DNA of 52,789 nucleotides from Candidatus Faecimonas gallistercoris (lineage in GTDB: Bacteria; Bacillota_I; Bacilli_A; RF39; UBA660): assembly GCA_018712565.1 (NCBI GenBank), contig DVGU01000057.1, positions 1 to 52,789 on the forward strand, given 5' to 3'. The notes below the pieces were generated by a model. It ran no database searches, was not told the DNA's origin, and worked only from the letters and a program-made list of their open reading frames with translations. Position 1 is the stretch's first letter; each line of letters opens with the position of its first letter. Below, in pieces: positions 15,986-37,345 of this stretch. Both the position numbers and the translations under genes were made by a program.

Positions 15986-16213
15986 ATGGAATTTGAAAAT
16001 AGTGGAATGGGTAGATGTGTTGTTTTAAAAGAAAGCAATACCCAATATACATTAGTCTATGCTATTCAAAGTAAACAATTCATTGTTGTTTCTGATTTAG
16101 ATAAAGAAACAGGTAGTTGGTTACATGGTCATTACTTCGGACATGATTTAGATAGTGCTTTATCTAGCTTTAACAAGGAAACAGAAAAAGTACAAGATGA
16201 CTTGGAAAGGTAG
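15986..16213 (+). CDS. Hypothetical protein ending DDLER
   Basis: AAGGAG RBS, W..GHYF motif, C-terminal tag. Confidence 0.8.
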   Translation: MEFENSGMGRCVVLKESNTQYTLVYAIQSKQFIVVSDLDKETGSWLHGHYFGHDLDSALSSFNKETEKVQDDLER

Positions 16214-16222
16214 GAAAATCAA

Positions 16223-16599
16223 ATGGAAAAAGTTGCAGTATATGCTAGTTTTAAAGACCAAAGTAGAAAGTCGATTGATTTTTTTCTAAACCGAGTAGCC
16301 GATTGGTGTCTTATGAAAAATTACGATTATACTCTTTACTTTGATAAAGTAAAAAATAGGTTAGATTTAGATAGAAAAGAATTAAATGACTTAAAAGAAG
16401 ATATTGAAAATGGAGAATACTCCAAAGTGATAATTAAAGATATAACACAATTATCAAGAAATACAGTTCATAATATGGAATTTTTGCAATTTTTAGAAGA
16501 TAATGACTGCAAAATAGAAAGCATGGATGGAACTGATTTAACTTTATATAAAAAATATATGAAAGATTTAATAAAATGAAGGAGGAAAAAGAAAGATGA
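16223..16599 (+). CDS. Stand-alone resolvase-like catalytic domain lacking the catalytic Ser; stops at 16579 as given, ends EEKER at 16599 if one A is added to the run at 16550-16555
   Basis: KVAVYASFK (cf. YARVS), RKELNDLKEDIENG, VIIKDITQLSRN (cf. DLSRLSRN). The repaired stop overlaps the ssb start as ATGA. Confidence 0.75.
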
Positions 16600-17003
16600 A
16601 TAATGAAAAAGAAAGAGAAGTAAGAAACTCTAAAAATAGTTTTGAATTAGAAGGGAATGTTGCTAATATAAATAACATTTATACCAATCAAAATGGTAAG
16701 AAAATGTTAAGATTCGATTTAGCACAAAATAATAATGGTAATACTCAATATGTCCCTATTGTTTTAAGGGGAGAATTAGTAAATACTTATGGTATTGAAA
16801 TCCAAAAAGGAGACTGGATCTCTGTTAAAGGTAGAATATCTACTTATACTAAAGATGTTGAAAAAGATGGAAAAACATATAAAGATAAAGCAATAGATAT
16901 TTTAGGCTTTGAAATTACTGATAGAAAAAATAATAAAGTTTATACTTCCGATGGTCAAGTTCAAGAATTAAAAGATAAATCAAAAGATGAAATGGAAAGA
17001 TAA
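16596..17003 (+). CDS. ssb: Single-stranded DNA-binding protein ending DEMER
   Basis: OB-fold pattern LEGNVA...RFDLA...KGDWISVKGRISTYT. Confidence 0.8.
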   Translation: MNNEKEREVRNSKNSFELEGNVANINNIYTNQNGKKMLRFDLAQNNNGNTQYVPIVLRGELVNTYGIEIQKGDWISVKGRISTYTKDVEKDGKTYKDKAIDILGFEITDRKNNKVYTSDGQVQELKDKSKDEMER

Positions 17004-17005
17004 GT

Positions 17006-17512
17006 ATGAGTAAGTATCAATATAAAATATTAAGTTATTGGAACAATGCAGATGATTTATATGTCAATTACATTGTAGAAGATACCGAAACTAAAAATAC
17101 AGTCAATGCAATAGAATATTACAATACTTCTGATCTTAGTTGTGATTATAATTCATCTTCAGTAGAGGATATTATAGATTCATTAACAGAACTAATCAAA
17201 GAAAACAATGGATTAGAATTTAATTTACCAAAAGTAAGTGAGGCAAGTCCATTACTTAAATACGTATATGATTATGTTTGTGAAAGTGATGCTGATATGT
17301 GTCATATTGATTATAACGATTGGGAAGAATTAAAAGAAGATGAAGAATTTATTGATGAAGATATTAATACTCTAAAAAAGGAAATTGATAAATACAATCT
17401 ACATAGTTATATAACACTAGATGATGGCGAGTATATGATATGTGGTTATGGTGGTTTACAATGTTGCTTTAATGATGATAGAGTAAAGGAGCATGATGAA
17501 CTTGAAAGATGA
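17006..17512 (+). CDS. Acidic hypothetical protein ending DELER
   Basis: Tightly coupled ORF, D/E rich. Confidence 0.8.
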   Translation: MSKYQYKILSYWNNADDLYVNYIVEDTETKNTVNAIEYYNTSDLSCDYNSSSVEDIIDSLTELIKENNGLEFNLPKVSEASPLLKYVYDYVCESDADMCHIDYNDWEELKEDEEFIDEDINTLKKEIDKYNLHSYITLDDGEYMICGYGGLQCCFNDDRVKEHDELER

Positions 17513-18170
17513 ATTAAAAAAAGGACAAGCATTTATAGGTGTTGATGATAAAAAATATTATTTTCTAGGATTTGATTATGATGACCAAATATTCTTTACT
17601 AATTTAGATTTATGGACTGATAAAGAACAAAGTTATATGACTAAAAGCAATATTTTTATTAAAGAGGTTTTAGATGAAAAATCAGAGATAATTGAAAATA
17701 GTACATGGTATTATCAGTCTATGAAAGAATTAGATAATTCTACTATGGAAGAAAAAATTAAAAGATGCTTGGATATTATTAAAAACTCAAATACAAAAGA
17801 ATTTGAATTAAGACCTACTGAGATAGGTCCATTAGTAAGAGGACAAGCATATAGTAAAGAGTTTAATCAATATTATGAGGTTATCGGTTTTATCGTTGAT
17901 AATAATATTTATTTAGATGCTGAATTAAAAGCTAAACAAAAAGGCTTTTTTGCAATCTATCATTCCAATTGTGAGAGTACAGTACCATTAATATTTGAAA
18001 GAAACTTTAGTGATAAAGATAATTCGTTTGATGGTAAACACTTTGTAGCAGGTAATGATGATAGAGTTGATATTGAAGATGTTATTTGTAATAAAGAATT
18101 AGTTAATTCTTATATGAATGACACACTATCGGATAGATTAGAGAATAACAACAAAGATATGTCAAAATAA
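17493..18170 (+). CDS. Hypothetical protein
   Basis: AAGGAG RBS, overlaps upstream gene. Confidence 0.75.
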   Translation: MMNLKDELKKGQAFIGVDDKKYYFLGFDYDDQIFFTNLDLWTDKEQSYMTKSNIFIKEVLDEKSEIIENSTWYYQSMKELDNSTMEEKIKRCLDIIKNSNTKEFELRPTEIGPLVRGQAYSKEFNQYYEVIGFIVDNNIYLDAELKAKQKGFFAIYHSNCESTVPLIFERNFSDKDNSFDGKHFVAGNDDRVDIEDVICNKELVNSYMNDTLSDRLENNNKDMSK

Positions 18171-18177
18171 AATATAA

Positions 18178-18219
18178 AACTGTGCAATTATTGGGTAATA
18201 GTTGCACAGTTGTTTTTTT
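18178..18219 (+). terminator. Strong terminator upstream of the T4SS genes
   Basis: AACTGTGCAATTATT-GGGT-AATAGTTGCACAGTT 15-bp stem plus T7. Confidence 0.8.
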
Positions 18220-18239: not shown

Positions 18240-18530
18240 GTGAATATAATGAGGAATTTTTTAAGTACATTAGCAATTCAACAATTAGAAGGTGGAACGT
18301 ATACAATAGATACTGTTTTAAATGTAATTAAACAAATAACTGACTGGGCATTAGCAGTAGGAATATCCCTTGCTGGTATTGCATTAGTTGTAAGTTTCAT
18401 TATGTATGCAGTAGTAGATGTCGACCAAAAGCCTAGAGTAAAAACAAGAATTTTACAGACATTACTTGGAATATTCGGAATAATTTTAGCCATCTCATTA
18501 GTTAATATTATTATAAAATTATTTACATAG
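18240..18530 (+). CDS. VirB2/TrbC-like pilin
   Basis: 96 aa, two TM helices separated by a basic loop, first gene of the MPF cluster. Confidence 0.7.
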   Translation: MNIMRNFLSTLAIQQLEGGTYTIDTVLNVIKQITDWALAVGISLAGIALVVSFIMYAVVDVDQKPRVKTRILQTLLGIFGIILAISLVNIIIKLFT

Positions 18531-18542
18531 GTGTAATGCTTT

Positions 18543-19931
18543 ATGATGACAAAAGTTTTTGATTTATTACGTAGTCTAGGTTGGTATTTAACAAGTTTTA
18601 TTTATGATTTAATTGATGGACTTTTGCAGATTATAAAAGAACTTAATGCGTTTGATATAATTAACTCATTATCAAGCAATCAAACATTCATAAATTTTTA
18701 TAATGGTGCTATGGCAATAGCAGTAACATTGTTTGCATTATTTATAGTATGGAGATTTGTAAATAAATTGTTAGATCCAGATGAAGAAACAACGTTTAAA
18801 ATGATTATCATGGAGGCAGTAAAATGTGGAACGCTTATTATGCTATCTACATTTTTATTTGTGCAAGTATCTAACTTTTCAATTACCTTATCTAATTATA
18901 CAGGAAATATTTTTGAAACGACCAGCAATTCAAAAATGAGTGATTCAATGCTTACAATGTTTATTTCTTATAGAGATGGTTATAAGAATAGCGAAAAGTT
19001 TGATGAAAGCAAAAGTATATCAGAATTAGTAAGTAGTGGCTCATTTGATAATGATGAATTATATTTGTCAAAATATGTAACTAAATCAAGAGTAATATTA
19101 TCTGATGAAAAAGATTATAAATACGAAATAAATTGGATTATGGCAGTATTAAGTGGTGGCTTTTTCCTATATAGTTTATTCTTTGCTGGAATTATGTTAG
19201 GAAGAAGGCAAATAGAATTTTTATTTCTATTTTCAATAGCACCAATAATATTTGCAACAAGTGTTTGTAATAAGCAAAGGCGAGGTGCAGTTATTGAACA
19301 ATTAGTATCGCTCGCACTCCAAAGTGCAGTTGTAATGCTAATAGTCAGTCTAACAGTAATGGTAATGCAAGAAATAAGTGTTACGACATTCTTTAGTAAT
19401 TCGTTTATGAATATTACAACTAAAGCATTATTATATCTTGGATGTGCGACATTCATCATGACAGGTAGTCAAGTGATTAACAGATTTATTGGCTCAAATG
19501 TAAGTGCAGCGAGTGGTAGAGAACAATTAATGTCATTAATGGGTTATGGCAAAATGGCTGGAATTGGAGCAACTATTGGAGCAGGAGCAACACTTGGTGG
19601 AGCTCTTTTAGGTACTGGTGTTGCTATGAAAGGTGGAAAAGCAGTAGGCTCTCATGCTTTATCTCAAGCAGGACTTGCTTTAGGAGTAATGGGTGCAGTT
19701 GATCCATCTAGTGGACAAACACCAAATAGAATGCAGAGATTTGCTAGTGCTATGGGAACAAGAATGTATATGGCTGGTCAAAAAATGGGAAGTAAACCTA
19801 GTGGCAATAAGTTTAGTGCAAGTGATGCCTTTGTAAATGCAGGAGCAAGTAGTTTGCATAATACTGTAAGAAGAGTAATGCCACGAGCGAGTTATAATAC
19901 ATCTTATTACCGAAGAAAAAACATGATATAG
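18543..19931 (+). CDS. VirB6-like polytopic T4SS membrane protein
   Basis: Many TMs, RQIEFLFLFSIAPIIFA motif, Gly/Ala-rich C-terminal tail. Confidence 0.8.
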   Translation: MMTKVFDLLRSLGWYLTSFIYDLIDGLLQIIKELNAFDIINSLSSNQTFINFYNGAMAIAVTLFALFIVWRFVNKLLDPDEETTFKMIIMEAVKCGTLIMLSTFLFVQVSNFSITLSNYTGNIFETTSNSKMSDSMLTMFISYRDGYKNSEKFDESKSISELVSSGSFDNDELYLSKYVTKSRVILSDEKDYKYEINWIMAVLSGGFFLYSLFFAGIMLGRRQIEFLFLFSIAPIIFATSVCNKQRRGAVIEQLVSLALQSAVVMLIVSLTVMVMQEISVTTFFSNSFMNITTKALLYLGCATFIMTGSQVINRFIGSNVSAASGREQLMSLMGYGKMAGIGATIGAGATLGGALLGTGVAMKGGKAVGSHALSQAGLALGVMGAVDPSSGQTPNRMQRFASAMGTRMYMAGQKMGSKPSGNKFSASDAFVNAGASSLHNTVRRVMPRASYNTSYYRRKNMI

Positions 19932-19944
19932 GAGGAATGAATTT

Positions 19945-20247
19945 ATGTATATTACAGTAAAATCAATAAAAAGAAATTTAGGTTTTAAAGGTATCGAGGT
20001 ATCTGATATTATTATTGCTTTACCAATATTAATCTTATTTATAGTCTTATTTTGCTTTACACCACTCAAAATACCTTCTATTGTTGGATTAATGATTGGA
20101 ATTTTTTGTTTACTACCTATTAATGTTAGTAAGAAAAATAGAATGTATAAAGTAATAGGTTTAATTTTTAAATATTTATTTAGAAATAAGATATATGTAT
20201 ATCAAAGGAAAGGAGAGGTGGACAACTTTGAAAAAACAAGTAACTAA
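19945..20247 (+). CDS. PrgI/VirB3-like membrane protein
   Basis: 100 aa, two TMs, immediately before VirB4. Confidence 0.7.
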   Translation: MYITVKSIKRNLGFKGIEVSDIIIALPILILFIVLFCFTPLKIPSIVGLMIGIFCLLPINVSKKNRMYKVIGLIFKYLFRNKIYVYQRKGEVDNFEKTSN

Positions 20248-22735
20248 AGAAGAAAAAAAGAAAAAGAAAGAACATAAAGTTATAGAAAAGTTTGTTAAGA
20301 AGAAAGACAATTCAAAACAAAAATACATAACTAAAGGTGTTTTAAAAAGAAAGTTTAAAAATGCTCAAAGTTTTACCAATGCAGAAGTAGTAAATGATAA
20401 TGGAATTATAAAACTTCGTGATAATAGTTTTGCAAGAGTTTTTTCAGTTGATGCTATTGATTTATCACTAACATCAAATAATCAAAAGCAAAACTTTTTT
20501 AATCAATTAAAATTTCTTTATCAATTAAAAGGATTAAATTTAAGAATATACAAGTTAGATGATAAGATAGATCTAAATGCTAATAAAGATTACTACAATA
20601 GACTAATGGAAGAATTTGCTAATGATGAAGAAAAACTAACATTTTTAAAAGAAAGATATGATAGATTAGAAATATTAGAAGAACAAAATCTTACTACTAC
20701 AAGTAGATATTATTTTGTATTAATTAGTGATAATGATAAAGCATTAGAACATACATCAGAAGAACTAGAAATGCATTGTTACAATATGACACCTAGATTA
20801 CATATTCAAATGATTACAAATAAACTAGAGATATATCAGTTTTTGATAAACTTATATTTATCGAATGCTAATATAGAACAATTAATGTGGAGCGATTTAG
20901 TAGAACTAATCACTCCTTTTTTTATTAATGAAACAGTAGGTTATATAAAATCAGATGATACAGAAATACAAGTTGTAACAATTAAAAGATTACCACCATT
21001 TATAGATGAGTTATTTTTTGAAGAACTATTTAATGTTCCAGATACAAGATGTTGTATTCATATTAAAGATACAATACCAACTGAAGAACTGGTTAGAAGA
21101 TTAGATAGTAATTATGAATTTTTAGTTTCCGAAAGAAGCACTACTAGAAAATTATCAGATGCTACTCAAATGGATACTGAAAGAGAGAACTTTCAAGCAT
21201 TAATGACACAAATTAAAAATGGCGATGAAAAAATCAAAGAAGTTGATTTCATTATTGTAATAAGTGGTAATAGAAAACAACGTGAAGAAAAGTTAAAAGA
21301 GTTAAGAAAAATTGCTGATGTATTTCAAATTAAATTAGATGTTCCTAGAATGAGGCAAATGGAAGGTTGGCAAGCATTCGATATAACTAAAAATGGTTTT
21401 GAAGATTATCATAACTATCTTCCTAGTTTGACTTTATCAGCATCATTCCCACTTACGATTACTCATTTTAATGATGAAACAGGTTATATTTTAGGATCAG
21501 ATATTCATACAGCTTTACCAACAATATTTGATTTATTTCATAAAGATGCAACACGACCATCAAGTAATTTAGCCATAATTGCATCAACTGGTGGTGGTAA
21601 AAGTTTTACATTAAAGAAAATGATTATTAATGAAATTAATCGTGGTAATTCTTGCTTTTTGTTTGATGCAGAGGGCGAGTATGAAAAGTTAGTTAGGAAA
21701 AATAAGGGAGAGTATATTGATATGTATTCTTCTAGTGGTGGTATCATTAATCCACTACAAGTAAGATTTCTTCCTAGTGATAAAGAAGAAAAAGAAGATG
21801 GCGATATAAATTCAATTAATTATGAAGATTGTCCTCTTGCTAAACATCTAGGATCACTAGAAACATTTATTAAATGTGCCTTTGAAGAAATAAAAGAAAG
21901 TGAAGTAGTAGTTATGCTAGATATGATTGAAAAACTATATAAAAGGTTTGGTATAACTAAAAATACAAAAATATCTAGGTTAGAGAAATTAGAAAATACT
22001 GATTATCCAATATTTTCCGACTTGATAGAATTTCTACCAGATTATCGTAATATGATTACTAACCCAGAACAATTAAAAATAGTTGATAAGTTAGAGATAT
22101 TGTTAGATAGATTTAAAGTTGGAACTGATGCAATGTTATTTAATGGTTATACATCAGTAAATCTTGATGCTAACTTAATTGCATTTAATGTAAAGGACTT
22201 GCTATATAGTAAAAACAAAAGAATTATAACTACTCAGTTAGTAAATTTACTTACTTATCTAAATAATATTATCGTAAGAAATAAGATAGTAAATGATAAA
22301 GAAAAAGATAAAAAGAGAATTAAAAATATTGCAGTAGTAGTAGATGAGTTTCACTTATATTTAAAGAATACTGATAGTGAGGTATTGCTTACCTTTGAAC
22401 AAATTGCAAGAAGAATTAGAAAGTATCACGGGGCATTTATTCCAGCAACTCAAAGTATTCATGACTTTTTAGGAGATGATGATTCAGTTAGGAGTGCTAC
22501 AGCAATCTTTAATAATTGTCAGTATCAATTAGTTGGAATGCTAAAAGAAGATGACTTAACAACTTATTTAAAATTATTCTATCAAAACCCATTAACTGAT
22601 ACACAAAAAGAATTTTTAATGCAAGCAGAGATGGGAGAGTTTTTGCTTACGATTAATTCGAAGAATAGAATAAGAGTTAAAATTGTTGCTACACCACTTG
22701 AAGTTGAACTGATGGGAGAAGAAGTTAAAGTATGA
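20228..22735 (+). CDS. virB4: VirB4-family conjugation ATPase
   Basis: Walker A ASTGGGKS, FDAEGEY, INPL, Walker B VVDEFH, RIRKY, ATQS; probable TTG start at 20228 after GGAGAGGTG. Confidence 0.92.
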   Translation: MKKQVTKEEKKKKKEHKVIEKFVKKKDNSKQKYITKGVLKRKFKNAQSFTNAEVVNDNGIIKLRDNSFARVFSVDAIDLSLTSNNQKQNFFNQLKFLYQLKGLNLRIYKLDDKIDLNANKDYYNRLMEEFANDEEKLTFLKERYDRLEILEEQNLTTTSRYYFVLISDNDKALEHTSEELEMHCYNMTPRLHIQMITNKLEIYQFLINLYLSNANIEQLMWSDLVELITPFFINETVGYIKSDDTEIQVVTIKRLPPFIDELFFEELFNVPDTRCCIHIKDTIPTEELVRRLDSNYEFLVSERSTTRKLSDATQMDTERENFQALMTQIKNGDEKIKEVDFIIVISGNRKQREEKLKELRKIADVFQIKLDVPRMRQMEGWQAFDITKNGFEDYHNYLPSLTLSASFPLTITHFNDETGYILGSDIHTALPTIFDLFHKDATRPSSNLAIIASTGGGKSFTLKKMIINEINRGNSCFLFDAEGEYEKLVRKNKGEYIDMYSSSGGIINPLQVRFLPSDKEEKEDGDINSINYEDCPLAKHLGSLETFIKCAFEEIKESEVVVMLDMIEKLYKRFGITKNTKISRLEKLENTDYPIFSDLIEFLPDYRNMITNPEQLKIVDKLEILLDRFKVGTDAMLFNGYTSVNLDANLIAFNVKDLLYSKNKRIITTQLVNLLTYLNNIIVRNKIVNDKEKDKKRIKNIAVVVDEFHLYLKNTDSEVLLTFEQIARRIRKYHGAFIPATQSIHDFLGDDDSVRSATAIFNNCQYQLVGMLKEDDLTTYLKLFYQNPLTDTQKEFLMQAEMGEFLLTINSKNRIRVKIVATPLEVELMGEEVKV

Positions 22736-22914
22736 AACGATTAAGTGGTCGGCAGTTAAGAAAAGAGTTTAAGAAGATATACTTTGATGAGTTTGATGAT
22801 CCAAATGAATCTTTTATGGATTTCTTGTTAGACTTAATTCCAAAGAAAATATTAATAGAAATTATTTCAAAAGGGGAACATTATTATTCCTCTATTTTTA
22901 GTAAGTATAAATAA
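22732..22914 (+). CDS. Small hypothetical protein
   Basis: Start and stop overlap both neighbours. Confidence 0.65.
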   Translation: MKRLSGRQLRKEFKKIYFDEFDDPNESFMDFLLDLIPKKILIEIISKGEHYYSSIFSKYK

Positions 22915-23840
22915 TGAATAAAGGTAAAAAGAAAAACATTATTCTAAAAATTATTGGTGGTAGTACCATTTTGTCGGTAGCTTTTGCAATGGTTATTTTA
23001 ATTTGTGTGCTAATGATTTTTGATTTTTTTGGAACAAAACTTACAAAAGAAAAAGTTCAACACAATGAAGAATATGCAGATGCTTATAAGACTGCACTTA
23101 ATACATATCTAAAAGATGGATACGTTCCACTACAAAGACTATTATATTTTTATTTGGAAGATTCAACATTGACGCTAGATATTCTATATACAATGAATCA
23201 AAATAAAGAGGCAAAAACTGCTAGAGAAATAGAAAGTGTTTGTGAAGATCAAAGGGTAAAAAATATGACTGCTTGCACTAATGTTAATATAGAAGAAAAT
23301 AAAGATTATCTTGTAGTAAGTACAGGACATTTCAATTTTCCGTTAAAAAGTGAGTTTACTGTAACAAGTTTCTTTAATGAACAAAGAACAGTATATGGAG
23401 AAAGTAATACTCACAATGGTTGGGATTTAGCAGTACCAGCTCAAACACCAGTCTATTCAGTTTGTGATGGAGTGGTTGAAAAAGTAAACTTTACTCAAGA
23501 TTCTAATCTTCCTTACGACCAAAGTGGAAATAGTGTTGGCAATACAATTACCTTAAAATGTGATAGTGATTATGATGAAACTTATTATGTAATATTCGCT
23601 CATCTTTATCCTAATAGTGCAAAAGTTAGAGAAGGAGATACAGTAAGTCATTGGACACAAGTTGCAACTGCTGGAACTACTGGTTACTCAACTGGTAATC
23701 ATTTACATTATCAAGTGGAAAATGAAAATAGAGAATTAGTTGATGGAATGCAGTTAATTGATTTTACATTAAGTAGTTCATCAGACTTTAATGACTTTAA
23801 AAATCCTAATACTGGTTTTAGACCACCACTTGGAAATTAA
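22914..23840 (+). CDS. M23 peptidase, conjugative cell-wall hydrolase
   Basis: N-terminal TM, HNGWD (HxxxD), STGNHLH (HxH). Confidence 0.9.
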   Translation: MNKGKKKNIILKIIGGSTILSVAFAMVILICVLMIFDFFGTKLTKEKVQHNEEYADAYKTALNTYLKDGYVPLQRLLYFYLEDSTLTLDILYTMNQNKEAKTAREIESVCEDQRVKNMTACTNVNIEENKDYLVVSTGHFNFPLKSEFTVTSFFNEQRTVYGESNTHNGWDLAVPAQTPVYSVCDGVVEKVNFTQDSNLPYDQSGNSVGNTITLKCDSDYDETYYVIFAHLYPNSAKVREGDTVSHWTQVATAGTTGYSTGNHLHYQVENENRELVDGMQLIDFTLSSSSDFNDFKNPNTGFRPPLGN

Positions 23841-23859: not shown

Positions 23860-24125
23860 GCTATTTTATGATGGTAGCCACTTTTAAAGAAAAAGGTAGC
23901 CACAATATTTGTTGATATTAAAGGTATTTTTTATATAGGGTAGCCACTTTTGTTATTAAAAGTAGTCATTTTTGCAAGTGCAAAAATAGTAAGACACCAC
24001 TATTTTCCCTTTATGCCATAAGGAATAAAAGGATTTGTGGTGTCGTTCTTCTTATGCCCATTAAAAATATGCAATATTTTTATTAAGAAAAATACCTTAA
24101 AAAAGTAGAAAGTGGCTACCTATAA
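23860..24125. other. Candidate oriT
   Basis: Intergenic region before the RHH/relaxase operon. GGTAGCCAC at 23873, 23895 and 23939 plus an inverted copy at 24109-24120; IR ATTTTTGCA-AG-TGCAAAAAT (23968-23987); IR GACACCAC/GTGGTGTC (23993-24044). Confidence 0.65.
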
Positions 24126-24147
24126 ATTAAAGAAAGGAGTTTGTAAA

Positions 24148-24354
24148 ATGGTAAAAGGTTTAGTTAGAACTACATTAAGAATTGATAATAATTTAAAAAC
24201 TAGAATAGAACTTTTAGCAGTTAAAAATAATTTAAGTTTCAATAAAATGCTAACTTATCTAATAGAACTTGGCTATAATTCCTACATGGAAAAATTTGAT
24301 AAGTATTACGAAATACAAAATAAAAAAATTGAAAGAGAGGAAGAAGATGAATAA
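24148..24354 (+). CDS. Ribbon-helix-helix DNA-binding protein
   Basis: VRTTLRIDNNLKTRIELLAVKNNLSFNKML; GAAAGGAG RBS. Confidence 0.8.
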   Translation: MVKGLVRTTLRIDNNLKTRIELLAVKNNLSFNKMLTYLIELGYNSYMEKFDKYYEIQNKKIEREEEDE

Positions 24355-24811
24355 GACTAGAATTTATACAGATGAAGAAATAAGAGTTTTATTAAGTAAT
24401 CCTAATGTTGTTAGAATTAGAAATAAAAGTCAGATACTTTATAAAAATAGTTTTAAACTTTGGGCTGTTAAAGAAAAATTATCTCATAGCGAAAAGACTG
24501 CAAAAGAAATATTTACTGAAGGTAAGTTTGATGTAAATATGTTAGATGACAGAACTCCACAAAAAAGGTTAAACTCATGGATGAAGAAATATAAAATATT
24601 TGGAGAAGATTATTTTTCTGATTCTAAATCTCATTATCAAACAAAAGGAACAATTTTTGATAAAGATAAAGCAGAACATAACTTTGTAAATTATGTTAGA
24701 AAAGCAGTACATAATCCAAAGTTTGTAGCATTCATAATTGATAGAGATGAAAAAAATAATCTTCGTATAACTAATTTAGTGAGTATTGAAGATGAAAAAA
24801 CTAACAGTTAG
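24347..24811 (+). CDS. Protein with IS3-family OrfA-like HTH domain
   Basis: YTDEEIRVLLSNPNV...YKNSFK..AV...EIF...FD...RLNSWMKKY...G pattern; no OrfB follows. Confidence 0.65.
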   Translation: MNKTRIYTDEEIRVLLSNPNVVRIRNKSQILYKNSFKLWAVKEKLSHSEKTAKEIFTEGKFDVNMLDDRTPQKRLNSWMKKYKIFGEDYFSDSKSHYQTKGTIFDKDKAEHNFVNYVRKAVHNPKFVAFIIDRDEKNNLRITNLVSIEDEKTNS

Positions 24812-25121
24812 ATTAGAAGATTATATTTATGATAGACTTTATCTTGTAGCAAATGATAATACCACATCAGTAAATAAAGTTGTGGCTAGTATTTTAGAAA
24901 AATATATTAACGAGCCAAGAGAAATTAATTATTTAAAAGAAATAGATGAAAAATTAAAGAATATAGATGATAAGTTAGAAAAAATTTCTAAAAGACAATA
25001 TAAGCATTTTAAATTATCTCAACAACACTTTGCTAACTTTGGCTACTTATCAAATGCTGATATAAAAGAAGATAAATGTCTTAATGAAATATTAAATAGT
25101 AAGGACTCTTTCAATGAGTAA
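24792..25121 (+). CDS. RHH relaxosome accessory protein
   Basis: KKLTVRLEDYIYDRL...SVNKVVASILEKY followed by a coiled coil; overlaps the relaxase start. Confidence 0.75.
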   Translation: MKKLTVRLEDYIYDRLYLVANDNTTSVNKVVASILEKYINEPREINYLKEIDEKLKNIDDKLEKISKRQYKHFKLSQQHFANFGYLSNADIKEDKCLNEILNSKDSFNE

Positions 25122-26478
25122 AAAAAGTCCTAATGTTGTATTTAAAGGTAGATACAGTCTAGCACTTACTTGTAGAGATAATAAAAACAAATCATTAAAT
25201 TATAAAGAAGAAAGATTAAAAGATGTTGATGACATGATTGATTATTATTCTGATGAAAAGAAAAAAACAGTTGGAATGTTTGAATATTATATGGGGCATA
25301 CAAGAAACGAAAAATATAATCTTGTAATGGAAAATGGGTCTTATGCTACTAAACAAGATATAGCAAAAATTAAAACTAATTATAAAAAGTATATTGAAAA
25401 CTCAAATCTTTGGAAAGGCATCTTAAGTTTTAAAAAAGAATATCTTGATGAAAATATAGACATAAAAACATTAGAACAAAAGATAGCTAAAGAGGTAATG
25501 CCTCAATTTTTAAAGTATTGTGGTTTTAAGGATATGAAAAATATGAGTTTTGTTTTTGCAATACATACTAATAGAAAACATCAGCCACACATTCATTTTG
25601 CTTTTATTGAAAAAAAGCCAAATTACTTATATTGCGATAATAAAGTTAATTATAGAAGAAAAGGTAAAATAAGTCTTGATGAGCAAAGGTATTTAAAAAG
25701 ATTAGTGGAACTTGCTATTGAAAGAGAGAAATATTATACTCCATTACTTAAGAAAACTAATGAAGATATTGATTATTTAAAATCATATTTTAATCCAAAA
25801 GAAAAAAATTTTGCATTAAGAAATGTAAATGAGATTTATGTTGAAGAAGATATTTTAAAACTAGGAGAGTTAATAAAGAAATATCGTGAGCAAAATAATC
25901 AAACATCTAAAAAAGTAAAATATAATTCTATTAAAGATAATGAACTTGGTAAAGAAATCAAGACTTTGACTAAAAGAATTAAATCATATCTTTTTAATGA
26001 TGAAACATCTATTTTGTATGCTAGTAGAAAAGATATAAATAAAGATTTAGAAAAACTTAATGACTATTTTGATACTTTAAATAAAAATAATAATGTTAAA
26101 GAGTTAGTGGCAGATAATAGTATTGTTAATAAAAAAGAAGAATATATTGATAACTATATTTATAATTCAATAGTAAATCATGCTTTATATAAATATAATC
26201 ATATTTCTATGTATGTAAAAAATAAGAATAATACTGATAAAATCACTATTGATGATTTAATACAAGAAGTTGTTTATCAAAATAGTAAACGAAATAATTT
26301 TAGTGATAAGCAAAGAAGAAAGCAAGTGTTATATAATTATTTTAAAGGTAATAGTTATATTTCTAGATTTCCTAGTAAGCATAAAATAGAGAAAGCCATA
26401 AAAAATATTAATTATGAAATGGAAAAAGCATCACAAGAGTTTAGTAAATTATTCAATTATGATGATAAAACTAAATAA
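25114..26478 (+). CDS. HUH relaxase, MobL-like
   Basis: N-terminal tyrosines (MIDYYS, MFEYY), LWKGILSF, HTNRKHQPHIHFAF three-His motif. Confidence 0.85.
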   Translation: MSKKSPNVVFKGRYSLALTCRDNKNKSLNYKEERLKDVDDMIDYYSDEKKKTVGMFEYYMGHTRNEKYNLVMENGSYATKQDIAKIKTNYKKYIENSNLWKGILSFKKEYLDENIDIKTLEQKIAKEVMPQFLKYCGFKDMKNMSFVFAIHTNRKHQPHIHFAFIEKKPNYLYCDNKVNYRRKGKISLDEQRYLKRLVELAIEREKYYTPLLKKTNEDIDYLKSYFNPKEKNFALRNVNEIYVEEDILKLGELIKKYREQNNQTSKKVKYNSIKDNELGKEIKTLTKRIKSYLFNDETSILYASRKDINKDLEKLNDYFDTLNKNNNVKELVADNSIVNKKEEYIDNYIYNSIVNHALYKYNHISMYVKNKNNTDKITIDDLIQEVVYQNSKRNNFSDKQRRKQVLYNYFKGNSYISRFPSKHKIEKAIKNINYEMEKASQEFSKLFNYDDKTK

Positions 26479-28158: not shown

Positions 28159-28519
28159 TGAAGAAGAAATAAAACAATTACTTAATAGTAACGAAAGGTT
28201 AGTATATATTGATGATGGGACTGATGAAATAGTAGCAAGGTATGAAGATTTACCAGATATTATTGTAGATGTAAATGAAAAACTTGGTCATACTGAAAAT
28301 TTAAAAGTATATGATTTTGATAATCAACTTCTTGATAAACCTATTTTAACAACAATAGGTTATTTTTTGGATAAATGTGATCCAAAAGTAAGAGAAGATA
28401 TTATTGATAGATTAGTTAACTTACAAACTGGAGTAGAACAAATGAAAGATTATAAAGTAATTGATGAAGATATGCTATTTGATGTTAGAATTGCCATGGA
28501 TGAAGAAATGGAAAGATAA
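28124..28519 (+). CDS. Acidic hypothetical protein ending EEMER
   Basis: AAGGAGG RBS, C-terminal tag. Confidence 0.8.
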   Translation: MNENQGILKMYNEEEIKQLLNSNERLVYIDDGTDEIVARYEDLPDIIVDVNEKLGHTENLKVYDFDNQLLDKPILTTIGYFLDKCDPKVREDIIDRLVNLQTGVEQMKDYKVIDEDMLFDVRIAMDEEMER

Positions 28520-28521: not shown

Positions 28522-30495
28522 ATGCCAATTCCTTATATTATCATTTTAGTTATAGTTGTATTAATAATTATCTTTTTATATTTTATTGAACCACTTATAA
28601 CTAGGCAGAAAATTAAAGATAATAATGAACATGGTAGTGCTAGGTGGTCAACTTTTCAAGAGATTAAAAAGAACTTTAGAAAAGAGAAGATAAATAATAT
28701 TATTGAAAGTGGTTTTCCAGTTTATTATTCAAAAGATAATAAATATGTATGGTTTGATATGACAACACCTCATTGGATTTATCTAGGATCAACTGGTAGT
28801 GGTAAAAGTGCTACTGCTGTTATTCCAGAATGTAGTTTTATAGCAACTGCTAAAAATAAAAAGAGTGTTTTTATTACTGACCCAAAGGGAGAAATTTTTT
28901 CTACAACAAGTAAGATGTTTAAAGATAATGGTTATAATGTATTTACATTGGATTTTAGAAATCCAGAATATTCTAATCATTCTAATTTACTTGAAACTGC
29001 AATAAATGAATATGAACTTTTTGATAAAAACGAGAAATTAAGTGATAAAGAAAAAAATGAAGAACTAAAAATTAAATATAAAAATGAGGCAATAACACAT
29101 TATGCTCAATGTAATCAAATAGTAAATGATATATGCACTATGATTATGGCTGATAAGACTGCAAAAGAGGCTTTTTGGAATAATAGTGCAAGTGATTTAT
29201 TATATGGTATTATTTTTTTGTTTTTAGAAGATTATGCTGATGGAAAAATTAAAAGAGAGCAAATAACATTAACATCTATGAAAAAATTTCAAAATAGTTC
29301 CATGACTGACAAAAACATAAAATCATTAAGAAAATATGTAGAGGCAAAGCCTTATGGATTTAAAAGTAAAGATAAATTGATACCAATTATTTCTACTAGC
29401 GAAAACACTTATAAAAGTATAACATCAATATTCAATGAAAGAATGACTCTGTTTGATGATGTAAATGTAGAAAATATAACATCAAATTCTGACTTTGATT
29501 TTGATATATTAGGAAAAGAGCCGACGGTATTGTATTGTTGCATACCTGATGAATCTAAAATATATTACACTTTAGTATCAGTAGTAGTATCTTTAATCTA
29601 TAAAAGATTGGTATTGTTATGTAATCAACAACCTAATAAAAAGTTACCAATCGAACTTGTATTTTTACTTGATGAATTTGCAAATACACCACCTTTACAG
29701 GACATTGAAACAATCGTATCAGTAGCTAGGAGTAGAGGAATGTATTTTCAATTTTTCTTACAAAGTTTTGCCCAACTTGATAATTTATATGGTAAAGAGG
29801 TTAGTCAAATAATACAAGATAACTGTGGACTTGCTTATTTAAAAACAAATACACAAGAAACAGCTGAAGCAATTAGTTCAAGACTTGGAACTCATGGAGT
29901 AGAAACCACCTCATTAAATTACTCTATTAGTTTACTTAATAATAATGGGAGTAAAGGCACAAGCCTTATTTCAAGAAGATTATTAACTGCTGATGAGATA
30001 AAACAATTACATTATAAAACTATTATATTCCCAACAATAGGTTATCCAATCTTTCGTGATACAGTAATTTATCAAAAGTTTAGTTGTTATAAAAAGGGAT
30101 TTATTGATAGAAAAATAAGACCACTTGAAAGACTAGCAAATACATACTATACAGTAGAACAATTAAAATTCAATAATAAAGAAAGTAATCAAGAGCCTAA
30201 ACTTGATACTGCTGAATCTAAAATTAAAACAAAGTTAGTATCAATAATAAATGAGGTATTAAAAGTCTTTGGAAAAATTGATTTTAATGTTGAATACGTT
30301 AAAGATGATGATAACATCATAGCCCAGTTGTATTTAGCACCACCATTATCAACTAACGATCTAAAAGAGTTAGAAGAATTAAGTAGTAAATTAGATTTTT
30401 TCTATAATGCTATATCAGATAAAGGAAAAGTTAATCGTAAAAATAGAAACTCATTAATTGAGGTTTTTTTAGTTAATAAAGAAAAAGAAATGTGA
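28522..30495 (+). CDS. virD4: VirD4/TraG type IV coupling protein
   Basis: N-terminal TM, HGSARW, Walker A GSTGSGKS, DPKGE, Walker B LLDEFAN, QSFAQL. Confidence 0.93.
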   Translation: MPIPYIIILVIVVLIIIFLYFIEPLITRQKIKDNNEHGSARWSTFQEIKKNFRKEKINNIIESGFPVYYSKDNKYVWFDMTTPHWIYLGSTGSGKSATAVIPECSFIATAKNKKSVFITDPKGEIFSTTSKMFKDNGYNVFTLDFRNPEYSNHSNLLETAINEYELFDKNEKLSDKEKNEELKIKYKNEAITHYAQCNQIVNDICTMIMADKTAKEAFWNNSASDLLYGIIFLFLEDYADGKIKREQITLTSMKKFQNSSMTDKNIKSLRKYVEAKPYGFKSKDKLIPIISTSENTYKSITSIFNERMTLFDDVNVENITSNSDFDFDILGKEPTVLYCCIPDESKIYYTLVSVVVSLIYKRLVLLCNQQPNKKLPIELVFLLDEFANTPPLQDIETIVSVARSRGMYFQFFLQSFAQLDNLYGKEVSQIIQDNCGLAYLKTNTQETAEAISSRLGTHGVETTSLNYSISLLNNNGSKGTSLISRRLLTADEIKQLHYKTIIFPTIGYPIFRDTVIYQKFSCYKKGFIDRKIRPLERLANTYYTVEQLKFNNKESNQEPKLDTAESKIKTKLVSIINEVLKVFGKIDFNVEYVKDDDNIIAQLYLAPPLSTNDLKELEELSSKLDFFYNAISDKGKVNRKNRNSLIEVFLVNKEKEM

Positions 30496-30997: not shown

Positions 30998-33900
30998 GTG
31001 AATAAAGAGTTTGTAAATGATTTTTTTAATATAAGAGATGAAACTTTAAAAGATATTCAAGATAATTCTTATAATTGGAATCGCTTTATTATCTACTGGT
31101 CTAAAATACTAGATGATTATAGCATTGATAATGTTCTTAACTTATATTCTTATAATTCTAGTGGTAGAGTTTTTAAGACCTTTGATGATTGGAATAGTGA
31201 GGAAATTGGTAGAAGAATAAAACCTAAAAGTAGAGGAATCCCAATAATTGTTAATGATGCAAAAATATATGTATTTGATATTAGACAAACTTATGGTAAA
31301 GAATATAGGACTTGGAATTATAATCACTATATTGATAAAGACATTTTAAATTATTATCAAGATAGTTATAATATTGAAAATGATGATAGTAAAACATTAT
31401 ATGAAAATTTTTATGATACGTTTTATGAAATATCATTAAATCAAATAATGAATAATTATAAAACAATGTCATCAGATGAAGTGGAGTTCGTTGCTAAAAC
31501 AATGACTTCACTTTTTTTAGCAAAATCTAATTTTAATATAAATAATCTTCCAACAGTTTATGAAATGCTGGAAAATATGGAAACTGACGATATTTTAAAG
31601 TGTATGCAGATAGCCAATAAAGAAACTGCAAACATATATAATGATTTTATAGAGAAAACTGATAATCTTATTTCCATACAAAATGTTATTCGGGAAAATG
31701 TACTTAATCAATTTAAAGAAGATACATTTATAAGTGAAGAACAAAAGCAGAACTTTATATCATCAATAGAACGAAATTCATTCTTTAATAGTGAGCATAT
31801 TGAAAATATCTATAATGGATATGTTACTAGATATGAACGTGCTTTTAAGAAAATGGTAAATAATATTGTTGATGAAATAACTACTGAAAGCAATGTAGAA
31901 AGTATTAAAGAAACTAAAGTTGATGATAGTGAGGAGATTAATACTGATACATCTTCAATAAGTGATGAAGAAAATGTTAGAGAACAAATGTCATTATTTG
32001 CACCTAGAGAAGAAGAACTCGCAAATAAAATATGTGATATTTTCAATTCTTTTGATACAAAATACCAAAATACATTTGAAATTAATAATGTGGAATTACA
32101 AAAGTGGGAACATATTAAAAGTAAAAAGAGAAATTTATCTATTATTTTAACAAGTTCTTTGATAGGAGAGTTTGCAGATAGAGATAATAGTTTTACTTAT
32201 TTTAATAGTGATAAAACTGATGAAATAAAGTTAAATAATAGTATTGCAAATAATTATTTTTTACAAGAATTATATAAAGATAAAGATTTTTCAATATCAT
32301 TTACTCCTAGTATGATTCATATATTTTGGCATAACTTTGATGATAAAACTTTTGATATGAATATTCCTAGTACAAAACTAGTAGATCAAAGTGAGATAGA
32401 TAATCAAGAGTTAGAAAAAATTGATGATGAAATATCTGCAATTAATAACGATAAAGAAATTGATTATAAAGTAACAACAGCTGAAATAATACCTACTCAT
32501 GATGGTGTTGAAACTAATGTTATAGAAAAACATACTTATAATACTGTTGGAGAAGAAATAGAAGAATATCCTAAAGTTAATTATCATATTGCTGATGATA
32601 AAACTGATACAAGTTTTGGTGCAAAATCGAGATTTGAAGATAACGTCAAAGCAATAGAATTATTAAAAAAGTTAGAAACCGAAAATAGGAATGCAACTAA
32701 AGAAGAACAAGATGTTTTAGCACGATATGTTGGTTGGGGTGGAATTGCTGATGCTTTTGATGAAAGAAAAGAAAACTGGAAGAGTGAGAGAGAAAGATTA
32801 AAATTACTTTTAAGTGATGAAGAATATAAATCAGCATCTCATTCTACATTATCTTCTTTTTATACTCCAAATGTTGCGATAGATGGAATATATAAAGCCT
32901 TAAAACAATTTGGTTTTGAAAAAGGTAATATTTTAGAGCCTAGTTGTGGTATTGGAAATTTCTTTGGTAGATTACCTAATGAATTTGCAAACTCTAAATT
33001 ATATGGAATAGAGTTAGATAGTATAAGTGGTAGAATTGCTAAAAAACTTTATCCTAATGCAAAAATAGAAATAAGTGGTTATGAAGAATCAAAAGTTAGT
33101 GATGACTTATTTGATGTAGCAGTTGGTAATGTTCCTTTTGGTAGTAATACAGTTTATGATAGAAGATACAAAGATAAGTTTTTAATCCATGATTATTTCT
33201 TCCAAAAGACATTAGATAAAGTTAGAGATGGAGGAATAATCGCTTTTATAACAACTGATGGAACTCTTGATAAAAAAGATACAAAGGTAAGAGAATACAT
33301 TGCAAAAAGGGCAGAGTTTTTAGGTGCAATAAGATTACCAAATAATATGTTTACAGATAATGCCAATGCTAAAGTTACATCGGATATTATTTTCCTAAAG
33401 AAACGTGATGAATTAAAACATGATGTAAGTGATGAAAGTTGGATTTATACAAGTGAATATGATGATGGAATAACAATTAATAATTATTATATTGATAATC
33501 CTGATATGATGCTTGGTAAAATGGAATTGCATTCAACTGCTTATGGTTTTGACAATACATTAAGTCCAGTAGATGAAGATATTAATGTTTTAATGAATAA
33601 AGCATTAGAAAAGTTACCAACTAATAACTATGAACAAACTACTTTTATTCAAAACGAAGATAATGATTACGAGGTACTTGATGCTGATGATAGTGTTAAG
33701 AATAATGCTTTTGTTATTATAAATCAAGATGGTAAAGATATAATTTATCAAAGGTCTTTTTCTAGTTTAGTTCCTTATTCTATTCAAGAGGGAATGGTAG
33801 CAAAAAGAATAATTGGTCTTTGCAAGGTAAAGAATGCTTTACGAGAAGTCTTTGATGTACAACTTAATGATGGCAGTGATGAAGAACTATCTTCAGCACA

Positions 33901-36900
33901 AGAAAAATTAAGTAAAGTGTATGATGAATTTTATAAAAAGTATGGTTATATAAATGATAGTGTAAACGCAAGAGCCTTTGATAGTGATCCAGATTATTAT
34001 TTGCTTACATCTATTGAAAATAAAATTAGTAAAGATGATGAAGAAAATGATAAACCTAAATATGAAAAAGGAGATGTATTTACAAAGAGAACTATCAGAA
34101 AAAGTAAAAAGATAACAAGTGCAGAAAATGCTGAAGAAGCATTAAGGTATTCACTTAACAATCGTGGGTGTGTTGATTTTGAATATATGAAAACATTATA
34201 TCCAAAAGAGGAAAGTGAAATCATTGATGAACTTGATAATTTAATTTATCAAGATCCTGAAAAGATAAATGATTTTAATTATGGTTGGGTAATAGCCAGT
34301 GAATATTTAAGTGGTAATGTAAAACAAAAATTAAATTATGCTAAAACAGTTAATGAGGATAATAAGTTTGATAGGAATATAGAGGCACTTGAAAGAGTAC
34401 AACCTAGACCACTTGAATATGATGAAATAAGTATTAAATTAGGCTCTACTTGGATACCAGAAGATGTATATCATGAGTTTTGCTGTGAACTTTTAGATAT
34501 TCCTAGTTGGAATAAGAGTCAACTAAAGATTAAATATGCAAAAGAGGTCAATACTTGGTTATTTCAAGCTAGTGGCTTATATGGATATGGAGTAAAAAAT
34601 ACAAGCACGTGGGGAACAGATAGAGCAGATGCTTTATCTTTAATTAAAAACTCTTTAAATCTACAAAGTGTAACTGTTTATGATAAGTTAGAAGATGAAA
34701 GGCGAGTTGTAAATCCAGTAGAAACTGCTAATGCTAGAGAAAAACAAGAGGCAATAAAGCAAGAGTTTAAAGAATGGATTTGGAAAGATGAAGATAGAAG
34801 AAATAGACTTGTAAAATTATACAATGAACAATTTAATTGTATGAAAGAAAGAGAATATGATGGTAGTCATTTAACTTTTGATGGTATGAATCCAAATATA
34901 GAACTTCGACCACATCAAAAAAATGCAGTTGCTCGTGTTTTATATGGTGGTAATACTTTACTTGCTCATGCAGTTGGTGCTGGTAAAACTTATGAATGTA
35001 TTGCTAGTGCAATGGAATTAAAGAGATTAGGTATAGTTAGTAAGCCAATGTTTGTTGTGCCGAATCATTTGTTAGGTCAATGGGCTAATGAAATTTTAAA
35101 ATTATATCCTACTGCGAATATATTAGTTGCAACACAAAAAGATTTTGAAAAAACAAGAAGAAAAAAACTTATGGGAAAAATAGCGACAGGAGAATGGGAT
35201 GCAGTTTTAATTGCTCACTCTAGTTTTGGATTAATTCCTATGAGTAAAGAGTATGAACAAAAACACATGGAAGGACAAATAGAAGAAGTAGTTAATGCGA
35301 TTGAAAGAATAAAAGCAGAAACTAATGATAGTTTAAGTGTAAAGAAACTAGAACAAATTAAAACTAGCATGGATACCAAACTAAAATCGTTAATTGATAG
35401 ACCAAAAGATGATGTGGTAACATTTGAAGAATTAGGTGTCGATGAATTAATTGTTGATGAGGCACACTTGTTTAAAAACTTACCTATGTTTTCTAAAATA
35501 AGAAATGTTGCTGGAATAAATAATAGTGAATCTAAAAAAGCAACAGATTTATTTATGAAGATAAGTTATGTATTAGAAAATAATGGTGGTAAAGGTGCAG
35601 TATTTGCAACTGGTACTCCTATTTCAAACTCCATGGGAGAACTATTTGTTATGCAAAAGTATTTGCAACTTGATAGATTGCGAGAAATGGGACTTGAACA
35701 TTTTGATGAGTGGGCATCAACTTTTGGAGAAATTGTTAATAGTTTTGAAATCGCTCCTGATGGTAGTGGTTTTAGAACAAAAGCAAGATTTGCTCAATTC
35801 TTTAATATTCCAGAATTAATGACTTTATTTAAAGAAATTGCTGATATTCAAACATCTAAAATGTTAGATCTACCAGTTCCTAAATTAAAAGGTGGAGATT
35901 ATAAAACAGTAGTTGCTCCAAAAAGTGATGAACTTGCTGAATATGTTAATAAGTTAGCAGAACGTAGTGAAATTATTAGGAATGGTTGTGATCCAAGGGA
36001 TGATAATATGCTTTTAGTAACCAATGATGGTAGAAAAGCAGCACTCGATTTAAGAATGATAGATCCTAGTATGCCAGATTTACCTAACTCAAAAATAAAT
36101 ATGGCAGTAGAAAACATTTATAGAATATGGTTAGAAAACAAAGATGACAAGTTAACGCAACTTGTCTTTTGTGATTTATCTACTCCTAAAAATGATGGTA
36201 CTTTTAATGTTTATGATGATATTAAAAACAAACTTATTGCTAGAGGAGTACCAGCAGATGAAATTGAGTATATTCATAACGCAAAAACTAATCCTCAAAA
36301 ATTAAAACTTTTTGAAGATATGCGAAATGGAACAAAAAGAATTTTAATAGGATCAACTTCTAAAATGGGAGCAGGAATGAATGTTCAAGATAAATTAATT
36401 GCTTTACATCATTTAGACTGTCCATGGCGACCATCTGATATTGAACAACGTGAAGGAAGGATTTTAAGACAAGGTAATCAAAATGATGAAGTGGAAATAT
36501 ATCGTTATGTTACTGAAGGTAGTTTTGATGCGTATTCTTATCAATTAATTCAAACGAAATCTACTTTTATTAATCAAATAATGTCTAACAGTAATGGTGG
36601 TGGAAGAACTGCTGAAGATTTAGATAGAGATACACTCACTTATGCAGAGGTTAAAGCTCTTGCTAGTGGGAATCCTTTGATTTTAGAAAAGTTTAAAGTA
36701 GAAAATGAATTAAAACAATTATACTTATCTAAAAGTAGATATGATAAATCACATATTGAACTTGAGGCAAAATATAATACAGAATTACCACGTAAATTAA
36801 AATATCAAAAGCAATATTTAAGTGGTCTTGAAGAAGATGTAAAAAATGTCAAAGATTTGTCTGCAGATAATTTTGTAATTACTATTAAAGATAAAATTTA

Positions 36901-37345
36901 TGATTCTAGGAAAGAGGCTAGTACAAAATTTTATGAAAGTTTTTCTCTTTTAAAGTCTAGAGAAGAAACTAAAATTGGAGAAATAAGTGGTTTTGATATT
37001 ATTGGTACTAAAGATGAGTTATGGTATAAACCAGTTATTTATATACAAGGTGCTGGAAAGTATAAAGTTGAAATTAGTAATACTGATGAAATAGGTAATA
37101 TTTTAAAATTAGAAAATATGCTAAAAAGTTTTGAAAATAAAATTGGTACTGCTAAAGAACAAATCGCTTATACTGAAAAACAACTTATAGATGTTAAAGA
37201 GGAACTTGATAAACCATTTACACAAAAAGATAGAATTAAAGAATTACAAAAAGAAAAAGCAAGAATTGATAGTGAACTTGATTTAGATAAGCAGGAAAAC
37301 AATAGAAGTGTTGAGAAAACAACTGAAGAAGAATTAGAAAGATAA
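30998..37345 (+). CDS. ArdC-N-like domain + N6-adenine methyltransferase + SNF2 helicase (DarB-like), ending EELER
   Basis: N-terminal YS..N...W...GRRIK..SRGIPI...YVFDIRQT; [10 protein letters not shown] and GNVPF; [26 protein letters not shown]. Confidence 0.92.

Follow-up and report, generated by a model that had tools for sequence, protein, structure and literature searches.

An element-private acidic Glu-Arg tail shared by the single-strand DNA-binding protein and unrelated accessory proteins of an integrative and conjugative element from a gut bacterium

The 52,789-nucleotide stretch analyzed here (the window; GenBank contig DVGU01000057.1, positions 1 to 52,789) is one entire contig, C36, of the 1.29-Mb, 74-contig, 28% GC genome of Candidatus Faecimonas gallistercoris, whose assembly (GCA_018712565.1) is 89% complete. 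From about 12.9 to 40.1 kb it carries an integrative conjugative element (ICE), a conjugative context documented by Pfam matches for VirD4, VirB4, a hydrolase and a recombinase. Five intact open reading frames (ORFs) of this element encode unrelated proteins that end in [DE][DE][LM]ER directly before the stop codon (DDLER, DEMER, DELER, EEMER and EELER). A first-pass annotation of the window had listed these endings together with two more, EEKER and DEMER, read from broken frames after one-nucleotide repairs, and had proposed that they address proteins to the type IV secretion system (T4SS) of the element. The five intact endings, their codons and the use of all three stop codons are confirmed here, and the two repaired endings are borne out by intact orthologs, without editing of the sequence. 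We describe the tailed proteins, the conservation and lineage specificity of their common C-terminus, and the receptor that it may address.

All seven tailed genes lie on the plus strand. The leftmost (15986-16213) encodes a 75-residue soluble, acidic orphan with an isoelectric point (pI) of 4.8 that ends DDLER-TAG. It is followed at 16223-16599 by a gene for a resolvase N-terminal-like domain only (Pfam Resolvase, 1.3e-8), in which the ORF 16223-16579 loses its frame within a homopolymer run; EEKER and a stop at 16599, which overlap the start of the next gene, are reached in the other frame. A near-identical ICE from another metagenome-assembled genome (MAG), G061, has the same break, and the gene is intact in four other elements; because this relative shares it, comparison of the sequences indicates a real mutation and not a read error. 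A resolvase catalytic domain without a DNA-binding domain is in this way a member of the tailed set. The overlapping gene (16596-17003) specifies the element's own single-strand DNA-binding protein (SSB), with an oligonucleotide-binding (OB) fold (Pfam SSB, 7.9e-8) and the ending DEMER-TAA. Canonical bacterial SSBs close with an acidic run and a free [IL]PF terminus that serves as an interaction hub, and in the ICE protein DEMER takes the place of that tip. Directly downstream (17006-17512) is the gene for a 168-residue, very acidic protein (pI 4.1) ending DELER-TGA. Its AlphaFold2 (AF2) model has a mean confidence (pLDDT) of 93 with values below 50 for residues 163-168, for which reason the tail is predicted to be a floppy, disordered extension, and no fold match to it was found in PDB (best TM 0.23).

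The remaining three bearers flank the coupling protein gene virD4. An acidic protein of about 110-126 residues is encoded at 27405-27741; here the ORF 27360/27405-27698 is again broken in a homopolymer run, and the other frame runs to QDEMER and a stop at 27741. The gene at 28124-28519, which always stands directly upstream of virD4, encodes a 131-residue acidic protein (pI 4.2; EEMER-TAA), whose AF2 model (pLDDT 83) likewise found no fold match in PDB (best TM 0.22). The largest bearer (30998-37345; EELER-TAA) is a 2115-residue SNF2 helicase of the polyvalent-protein type, containing a SWI2/SNF2 ATPase module (Pfam SNF2-rel_dom, ResIII and Helicase_C) as well as sequences resembling methylase motifs, one like motif I near residue 650 and the other NVPF at 711. 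Its residues 1-1300 gave no Pfam or PDB match, and a homolog 90% identical over residues 1700-2115 is named 'N12 class adenine-specific DNA methylase' by one source. The earlier description of this giant as an anti-restriction-like enzyme holds as far as the SNF2 matches and methylase-like motifs go, and nothing was found beyond these.

As had been stated, the bearers are soluble: none contains a transmembrane-like segment, and their pI values range from 4.1 to 5.2 (SSB, 7.8), the untailed soluble proteins of the ICE being mostly basic DNA binders or ATPases. Four bearers (75, 168, about 120 and 131 residues) are orphans, in keeping with the earlier count of four proteins of unknown function. 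Searches of Pfam, PHROGs and NCBIfam returned no family for the products of 15986, 17006, an intact ortholog of 27405, 27883, 28124, 17493, the putative relaxase or 37459, and the ESM Atlas, consulted for the function of bearers, yielded only unnamed clusters (scores 0.75-0.76). The small acidic bearers may, to judge only from their pI, act against restriction.

The shared ending has the consensus [DE][DE]-Phi-E-R-COOH, that is, one or more acidic residues, a mostly hydrophobic or aromatic residue (Phi), and Glu-Arg at the free end; two to four of the last six residues are acidic, and a single Arg stands at the terminus. Across the whole genome, [DE][DE][LMK]ER ends five of 1623 ORFs of at least 70 residues, all five of them inside the ICE (5/32 ICE ORFs vs 0/1591 elsewhere; p = 2e-9 by Fisher's test), where C-terminal composition predicts 0.019. 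This count uses the very data on which the motif was defined, and the independent test is that of the orthologs. The enrichment over the host proteome that the first-pass annotation had proposed to look for is accordingly present. Only ten ORFs in the entire genome have any ER end, and internal copies of the motif within ICE proteins number zero.

Orthologs were drawn from 27 related loci and five elements fetched in full, all from uncultured MAGs; the elements are kin, their homologs do not represent independent events, and the functional steps proposed below are inferred. Among distinct homologs of the seven tailed families, 59 of 76 end in ER, the others being mostly split or truncated ORFs or near-variants (EEMDR, EEMEK, FEMEN). 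By contrast, an ER end occurs in 0/221 distinct homologs of 26 untailed families, so that the claimed absence from the mating-pair formation parts, VirD4, relaxase and recombinase extends to their homologs; the full motif is likewise absent from ORFs outside the ICE (0/1591). Membrane T4SS parts, VirB4, VirD4, the putative relaxase, ribbon-helix-helix (RHH) and helix-turn-helix (HTH) proteins, recombinase, sortase and adhesin are never ER-tailed. Within individual families, ER ends are found in 2/2 distinct homologs of the 15986-16213 protein (DDLER, DEQER), 6/6 SSB orthologs and 17/19 homologs of the 27405 protein, including a 96%-identical, 126-residue ORF (in locus L003) that ends DEMER. 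Intact orthologs of the resolvase-like protein have 125-140 residues, and 4/6 distinct homologs end EERER, EEIER, EEKER or EELER. Deeper sampling gave the same picture: the giant's 120 closest homologs include 116 with ER, the best 120 of 289 homologs of the 28124 protein comprise 102 ending in ER and 18 in DR, and in the 17006 family ER terminates 88/103 homologs, or 81/90 of those with an intact domain end. Additional bearers in the relatives are proteins of 152, 170, 186, 281 and 282 residues.

These homologs keep the tail while the sequence in front of it changes. In the 17006 family the globular domain closes with a conserved ...FNDDR, then follow a linker of 4-8 residues, variable in length and sequence, and x-E-R, in which x is L, F, Y, H, I, M or Q; the SSB linker is also variable in alignment. 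When 1.8 billion representatives were searched with the SSB profile, 13 of the 24 strongest matches ended in ER; inspection of lengths and ends by eye suggests that the other 11 are fragments, fusions or variants, and the tip of ten weaker matches is the canonical [IL]PF. Codon choice for the final two residues varies (GAA 54, GAG 8; AGA 49, AGG 13), and all three stop codons are in use, which upholds the earlier statement that conservation is at the protein level. The tail is, in sum, a protein-level, strictly C-terminal, disordered motif of seven protein families, private to one ICE lineage. Beside the tailed set, an untailed 225-residue soluble protein (17493-18170) has a conserved C-terminus of its own, K[DE]MSK or VDMSK in 6/6 distinct homologs, and its N-terminus resembles those of the ER-tailed 186- and 281-residue proteins encoded downstream of the giant gene in relatives.

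The same genome contains a second, related ICE, outside the window on contig C32 (minus strand, about 18000-41493), and we refer to the lineages of the window element and of this sister as type 1 and type 2. The C32 VirD4 is 56% identical to that of the window and the core as a whole 40-56%; between types, identities are 54-57% for VirD4, 53-56% for VirB4, 42-46% for the putative relaxase and 47-54% for the VirB6-like protein. No protein of the C32 ICE has an ER tail. Instead, its SSB-like protein ends KEMDM, a 251-residue protein KEMDI and the protein just upstream of virD4 EDYEL, and type-2 relatives contribute the ends DEIEI, EVDL, EDYDL, EDYEL (twice), DELEM, EEMEF, EEIEM, EDLDL and SMEL. 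A terminal [DE]-Phi-[DE]-Phi pattern, formulated with these ends in view, is present in 3/22 ORFs of the C32 ICE and in 3/26, 1/25 and 3/21 of its relatives, vs 3/1601 elsewhere in the genome. BLAST and hidden Markov model (HMM) searches detected no type-2 homologs of type-1 bearers except the SSB (hmmsearch E from 7e-8 to 2.5e-4), and a clean argument that the same protein has switched its tail is therefore limited to the SSB. The host SSB, homologous to canonical SSBs (E 1e-17 to 1e-41), ends DDELPF. One cell contains in this way three SSBs with three tips, and the accessory set of each ICE has the tip of its own SSB. Because sister ICE and host SSB in the same genome end differently, the tail is element-specific, and it is identical to the SSB tip of the element. 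Also outside the window, the minus strand of contig C14 (13049-15523) contributes a third T4SS to this genome. It is of a type matched in 48/49 sampled genomes of the family and has an 824-residue coupling protein, 35% identical, which itself ends in a long acidic-aromatic tail, a reverse polarity reminiscent of F TraD.

Among the untailed proteins, the VirD4-type coupling ATPase (28522-30495, plus strand; Pfam T4SS-DNA_transf, 1.5e-54) is the candidate receptor. Alignment of VirD4 between ICE types is good to about residue 545, after which comes a C-terminal domain of about 110 residues (~546-657) whose identity is 59% among type-1 proteins and 20.5% across the two types; for the remainder of the protein the corresponding values are 78% and 59.5%. 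A basic insertion near the end is conserved in type-1 VirD4. Sequence comparison thereby offers this lineage-specific domain as a lead, a candidate reader of the tail. Co-folding of VirD4 residues 35-657 (12-row alignment) with the last 36 residues of the SSB (6-row) gave a score of 0.00 and a mark of 0.32 in a run without controls, and is evidence neither way.

We consider it probable that the tail is a docking peptide for one receptor or hub encoded by the ICE. A docking function is suggested because convergence of seven folds on one set of four terminal residues would not be expected otherwise, and an element-encoded receptor because two dialects in the same cell are not what a reader of host origin would predict. 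In the course of events that we envisage, the ICE lineage would have exchanged the canonical tip of its SSB for this tail and furnished with it a further six to nine soluble accessory proteins, non-homologous and for the most part very acidic, the 2115-residue giant included; the tail would dock every bearer onto one receptor of the same element, most likely the lineage-specific C-terminal domain of VirD4; and VirD4 would feed the bearers to the T4SS, by which they would be carried into the recipient along with the single strand. Once inside, the SSB would form a coat on the strand, and restriction or defence would be blunted by the giant enzyme together with the small acidic proteins. That the receptor is indeed VirD4 and the bearer set is co-transferred with the single strand, the full delivery reading, is a tenable but tentative proposition, at somewhat less than even confidence. 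The first-pass interpretation, delivery during mating, is partly supported: enrichment, conservation and the element-specific dialect speak for it, and a hub without secretory function explains the same facts. Three precedents support the VirD4 and co-transfer step: the F-plasmid T4SS is reported to move the plasmid SSB and other plasmid-encoded proteins in dependence on the coupling protein (PMC8406263), DotM of the Legionella coupling complex is described as binding acidic, Glu-rich C-termini (PMC5802825), and SNF2-methylase polyvalent proteins of conjugative elements have been predicted by Aravind's group to travel with DNA (PMC5512222).

Several points weigh against delivery by VirD4. Both delivery and VirD4 binding are inferred. 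The giant would need to be unfolded and threaded through the channel, and the resolvase-like and 28124 proteins could equally act in the donor. The VirD4 C-terminal domain is also the less conserved part of the protein within each type, and its divergence may reflect relaxed constraint only. The type-2 tail pattern was chosen after looking at the data, and its statistics are weaker than those of ER. No DotM-like protein was recognized in Pfam scans, in which 28 queries from the window, covering 27 ICE proteins, matched VirD4 and VirB4 and no Dot/Icm family. Characterized C-terminal signals of conjugative and VirB/D4 systems are, in the account of PMC11288057, positively charged or hydrophobic and not acidic. 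The acidic ICE tails do not have the character so described (PMC11288057), and they share with such signals a place in the C-terminal residues of unrelated proteins.

Comparison with known systems brings out partial likenesses. The Dot/Icm E-block read by DotM is, as described in PMC5802825, also an acidic C-terminal peptide on many unrelated substrates, recognized there by a basic surface of the coupling apparatus, and co-evolution of tail and receptor is suggested in the same source; however, that system is a type IVB apparatus of a Gram-negative pathogen delivering effectors to eukaryotic cells, and the E-block is a loose, unanchored, Glu-rich stretch of ~20 residues, whereas the ICE tail, in Bacilli, is shorter and stricter, with a strictly terminal E-R-COOH. 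The signals of VirB/VirD4 systems and of the F 'conjutome' are often C-terminal and coupling-protein-dependent, with SSB and accessory proteins co-transferred, but are described as lacking a consensus (PMC11288057, PMC8406263), in contrast to the sharp acidic pentapeptide of the ICE. In Xanthomonas, a common C-terminal module, XVIPCD, likewise marks T4SS substrates for VirD4, yet this module of antibacterial toxins folds as a domain of ~120 residues (PMC8740702) and is not a pentapeptide. The F TraD tail, an acidic extreme C-terminus, is a specific conjugation docking peptide for TraM, with the polarity reversed in that it sits on the coupling protein (PMC8406263). The T7 gp2.5 tail is an acidic tail by which the SSB of a mobile element meets a partner, and differs in engaging replisome proteins and in its C-terminal aromatic residue (PMC10359462), the ICE tail having seven or more bearers, mostly of unknown function. 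With canonical SSBs, the ICE SSB has in common the OB fold, a disordered linker and an acidic tip of whose epitope the free C-terminus is likely a part; its end, however, is M/L-E-R and not I/L-P-F, is element-specific, and recurs on at least six proteins that are not SSBs. C-terminal docking or address peptides are accordingly a known kind, element-private dialects of them are new, and the tail falls outside any named signal family, because it departs in part from the features of each of the T4SS-signal, E-block and SSB-tip classes. The first-pass annotation knew of no characterized acidic -ER signal for Gram-positive ICEs, and full-text searches of an open-access collection yielded no such or comparable terminal motif for conjugative elements, nor any Gram-positive conjugative protein-export signal; 'Gram-positive' itself applies to the hosts only in so far as they are Bacilli-class gut MAGs.

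The same docking peptide could serve a hub that secretes nothing and that organizes the DNA-processing machine of the element, in the donor or, after expression, in the recipient; among its possible parts are the relaxase, VirB4, the strand coated with SSB, and a polymerase or helicase of the host. We regard this chief rival as unlikely, if worth weighing with care. Bacterial SSB tips recruit many partners, and the T7 helicase gp4 carries a tail like that of gp2.5. Here the element's own SSB is tailed while the host SSB keeps a different, canonical tip, a SNF2 helicase is among the bearers, the type-2 dialect resembles SSB tips in placing a hydrophobic end after acidic residues, and contacts of the gp2.5 tail with other proteins of the replisome have been reported (PMC10359462). 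Yet most bearers are tiny, very acidic and of no DNA-enzyme family, and the relaxosome itself, that is, the relaxase and RHH proteins, is untailed. An exposed, disordered C-terminal peptide would also suit a degron or stability tag, recognized by some protease or adaptor of the host and keeping the bearers scarce or short-lived in the donor, and no host ORF has such an end; this absence is, however, uninformative where 0.019 is expected, and two ICEs using different tails in one host are unexpected for a single host reader, which makes a degron improbable. A transfer-messenger RNA (tmRNA) was not found in the 89%-complete assembly by ARAGORN, nor above the cut-off by Rfam, whose matches were tRNA-sized; one such match below the cut-off in this search lies in the window at 52020-52095.

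Action in cis, with no common receptor, has a counterpart in SSB tails that fold back onto their own OB fold (PMC10359462), and the acidity of the bearers would fit an intramolecular lid, a DNA mimic or a solubility tail. But there would be no reason for each of seven unrelated folds to require an identical set of four final residues with Arg strictly at the end, and the sister lineage switched the tail on a whole protein set at once; we give this explanation very little credence. The first-pass annotation had named, as a fallback, a by-product of overlapping ribosome-binding sites, whereby GAA-AGR at the stop would be a Shine-Dalgarno or translational-coupling signal for the next gene. The next start does overlap or lie within 15 nucleotides in 35/62 distinct tailed ORFs, and where it is 6-10 nucleotides away the Arg codon is AGG in 11/13 cases, giving GAAAGG. 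In five elements, however, the ER tail is equally frequent on genes with a downstream start at no more than 15 nucleotides (19/78) and on those with none within 60 (10/52; p = 0.53), 59 tightly coupled ICE genes lack it, orthologs of the giant and of the 27405 protein keep ER with the next gene 2 or more than 100 nucleotides away, and in every case the motif lies in frame directly before the stop, with a -3 residue that varies through unrelated codons. On these counts the by-product explanation appears close to refuted, and we find it scarcely credible. The synonymous choice of Arg codon seems to double as a Shine-Dalgarno signal, the peptide remaining unchanged.

The other genes of the window complete the description of the element whose tail we read as a docking peptide. 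The untailed T4SS core (18240-23840, plus strand), assigned from Pfam and hydropathy, consists of a pilin-like protein of 96 residues, a VirB6-like protein of 462, a membrane protein of 100, VirB4 of 846, a 60-residue ORF and an M23 hydrolase. It is followed by an untailed, basic DNA-processing set (24112-26478, plus strand) of small RHH-like proteins and a 454-residue putative relaxase, whose ORF (25114-26478) has no match in Pfam, PHROGs or NCBIfam and whose neighbourhood with RHH-like genes is kept in both ICE types. A thioester/SpaA adhesin with a sortase and an HTH protein are further untailed components. The right end is occupied by a large serine recombinase (38416-40098, plus strand; Pfam Resolvase, Recombinase and Zn_ribbon_recom), also untailed, and the 3' end of its gene is overlapped by a D-Ala-D-Ala carboxypeptidase gene (40061-40951) that is 5'-truncated and lacks about 100 N-terminal residues (the NCBIfam match starts at profile position ~109). 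This junction probably marks where the ICE integrated and forms its right border. Upstream of the element, at 1088-9536, lie ABC transporters, two FtsX-like permeases and a two-component system; these genes also precede the element in G061 and may be cargo or conserved host context.

Near-identical loci occur in gut MAGs labelled uncultured Bacilli. In one of them, the G061 ICE, the gene of the putative relaxase is separated from the 27405-like gene by an insertion, part of which is a ribosomal-protection gene of the TetM/W/O/S family (L037:2614-4533, minus strand; NCBIfam 1228 bits, cut-off 1100). Among PLSDB plasmids, no relative of VirD4 exceeds 28% identity, the matches being annotated 'CD1115 family'; because of this low identity the element family is unstudied and has no tie to a studied system. 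A code reading TGA as Trp was considered, since some relatives in the class show in-frame TGA, and was rejected for this genome: ORFs of at least 300 residues number 483 under table 11 vs 490 under table 4, TGG makes up 0.6% of codons, and TGA is a genuine stop. One public gene call for a 17006 homolog (P0215) reads past the TGA after ...DELER for 13 further residues, as under TGA=Trp, and readthrough calls of this sort would conceal the tail in databases.

Only for a few Gram-negative plasmids is it known what proteins accompany the DNA in conjugation and how these are selected, and even there a consensus signal is lacking. According to a 2024 paper (PMC11137577), whether plasmid SSBs behave likewise in Gram-positive systems is not known. 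A sharp, terminal, element-specific pentapeptide on an SSB, a giant and tiny acidic orphans provides a directly testable handle, and at least four orphan families become candidate factors of early establishment or anti-defence. Because relatives carry a tet(M/W/O/S)-family gene, the finding also bears on how resistance elements establish in gut bacteria. More speculatively, and on balance doubtfully, the ICEs of gut Bacilli might use distinct address dialects, each read by the C-terminal domain of its own VirD4. If they do, each of two co-resident ICEs could direct its SSB, giant and small acidic anti-defence proteins to its own T4SS for injection with the DNA, no code for protein export in conjugation would have been defined by sequence in Gram-positive-type bacteria before, and 'conjutomes' would be readable straight from sequence. 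Should the hub be something other than the T4SS, an SSB tip private to one element and common to a set of proteins would still be a new organizing principle.

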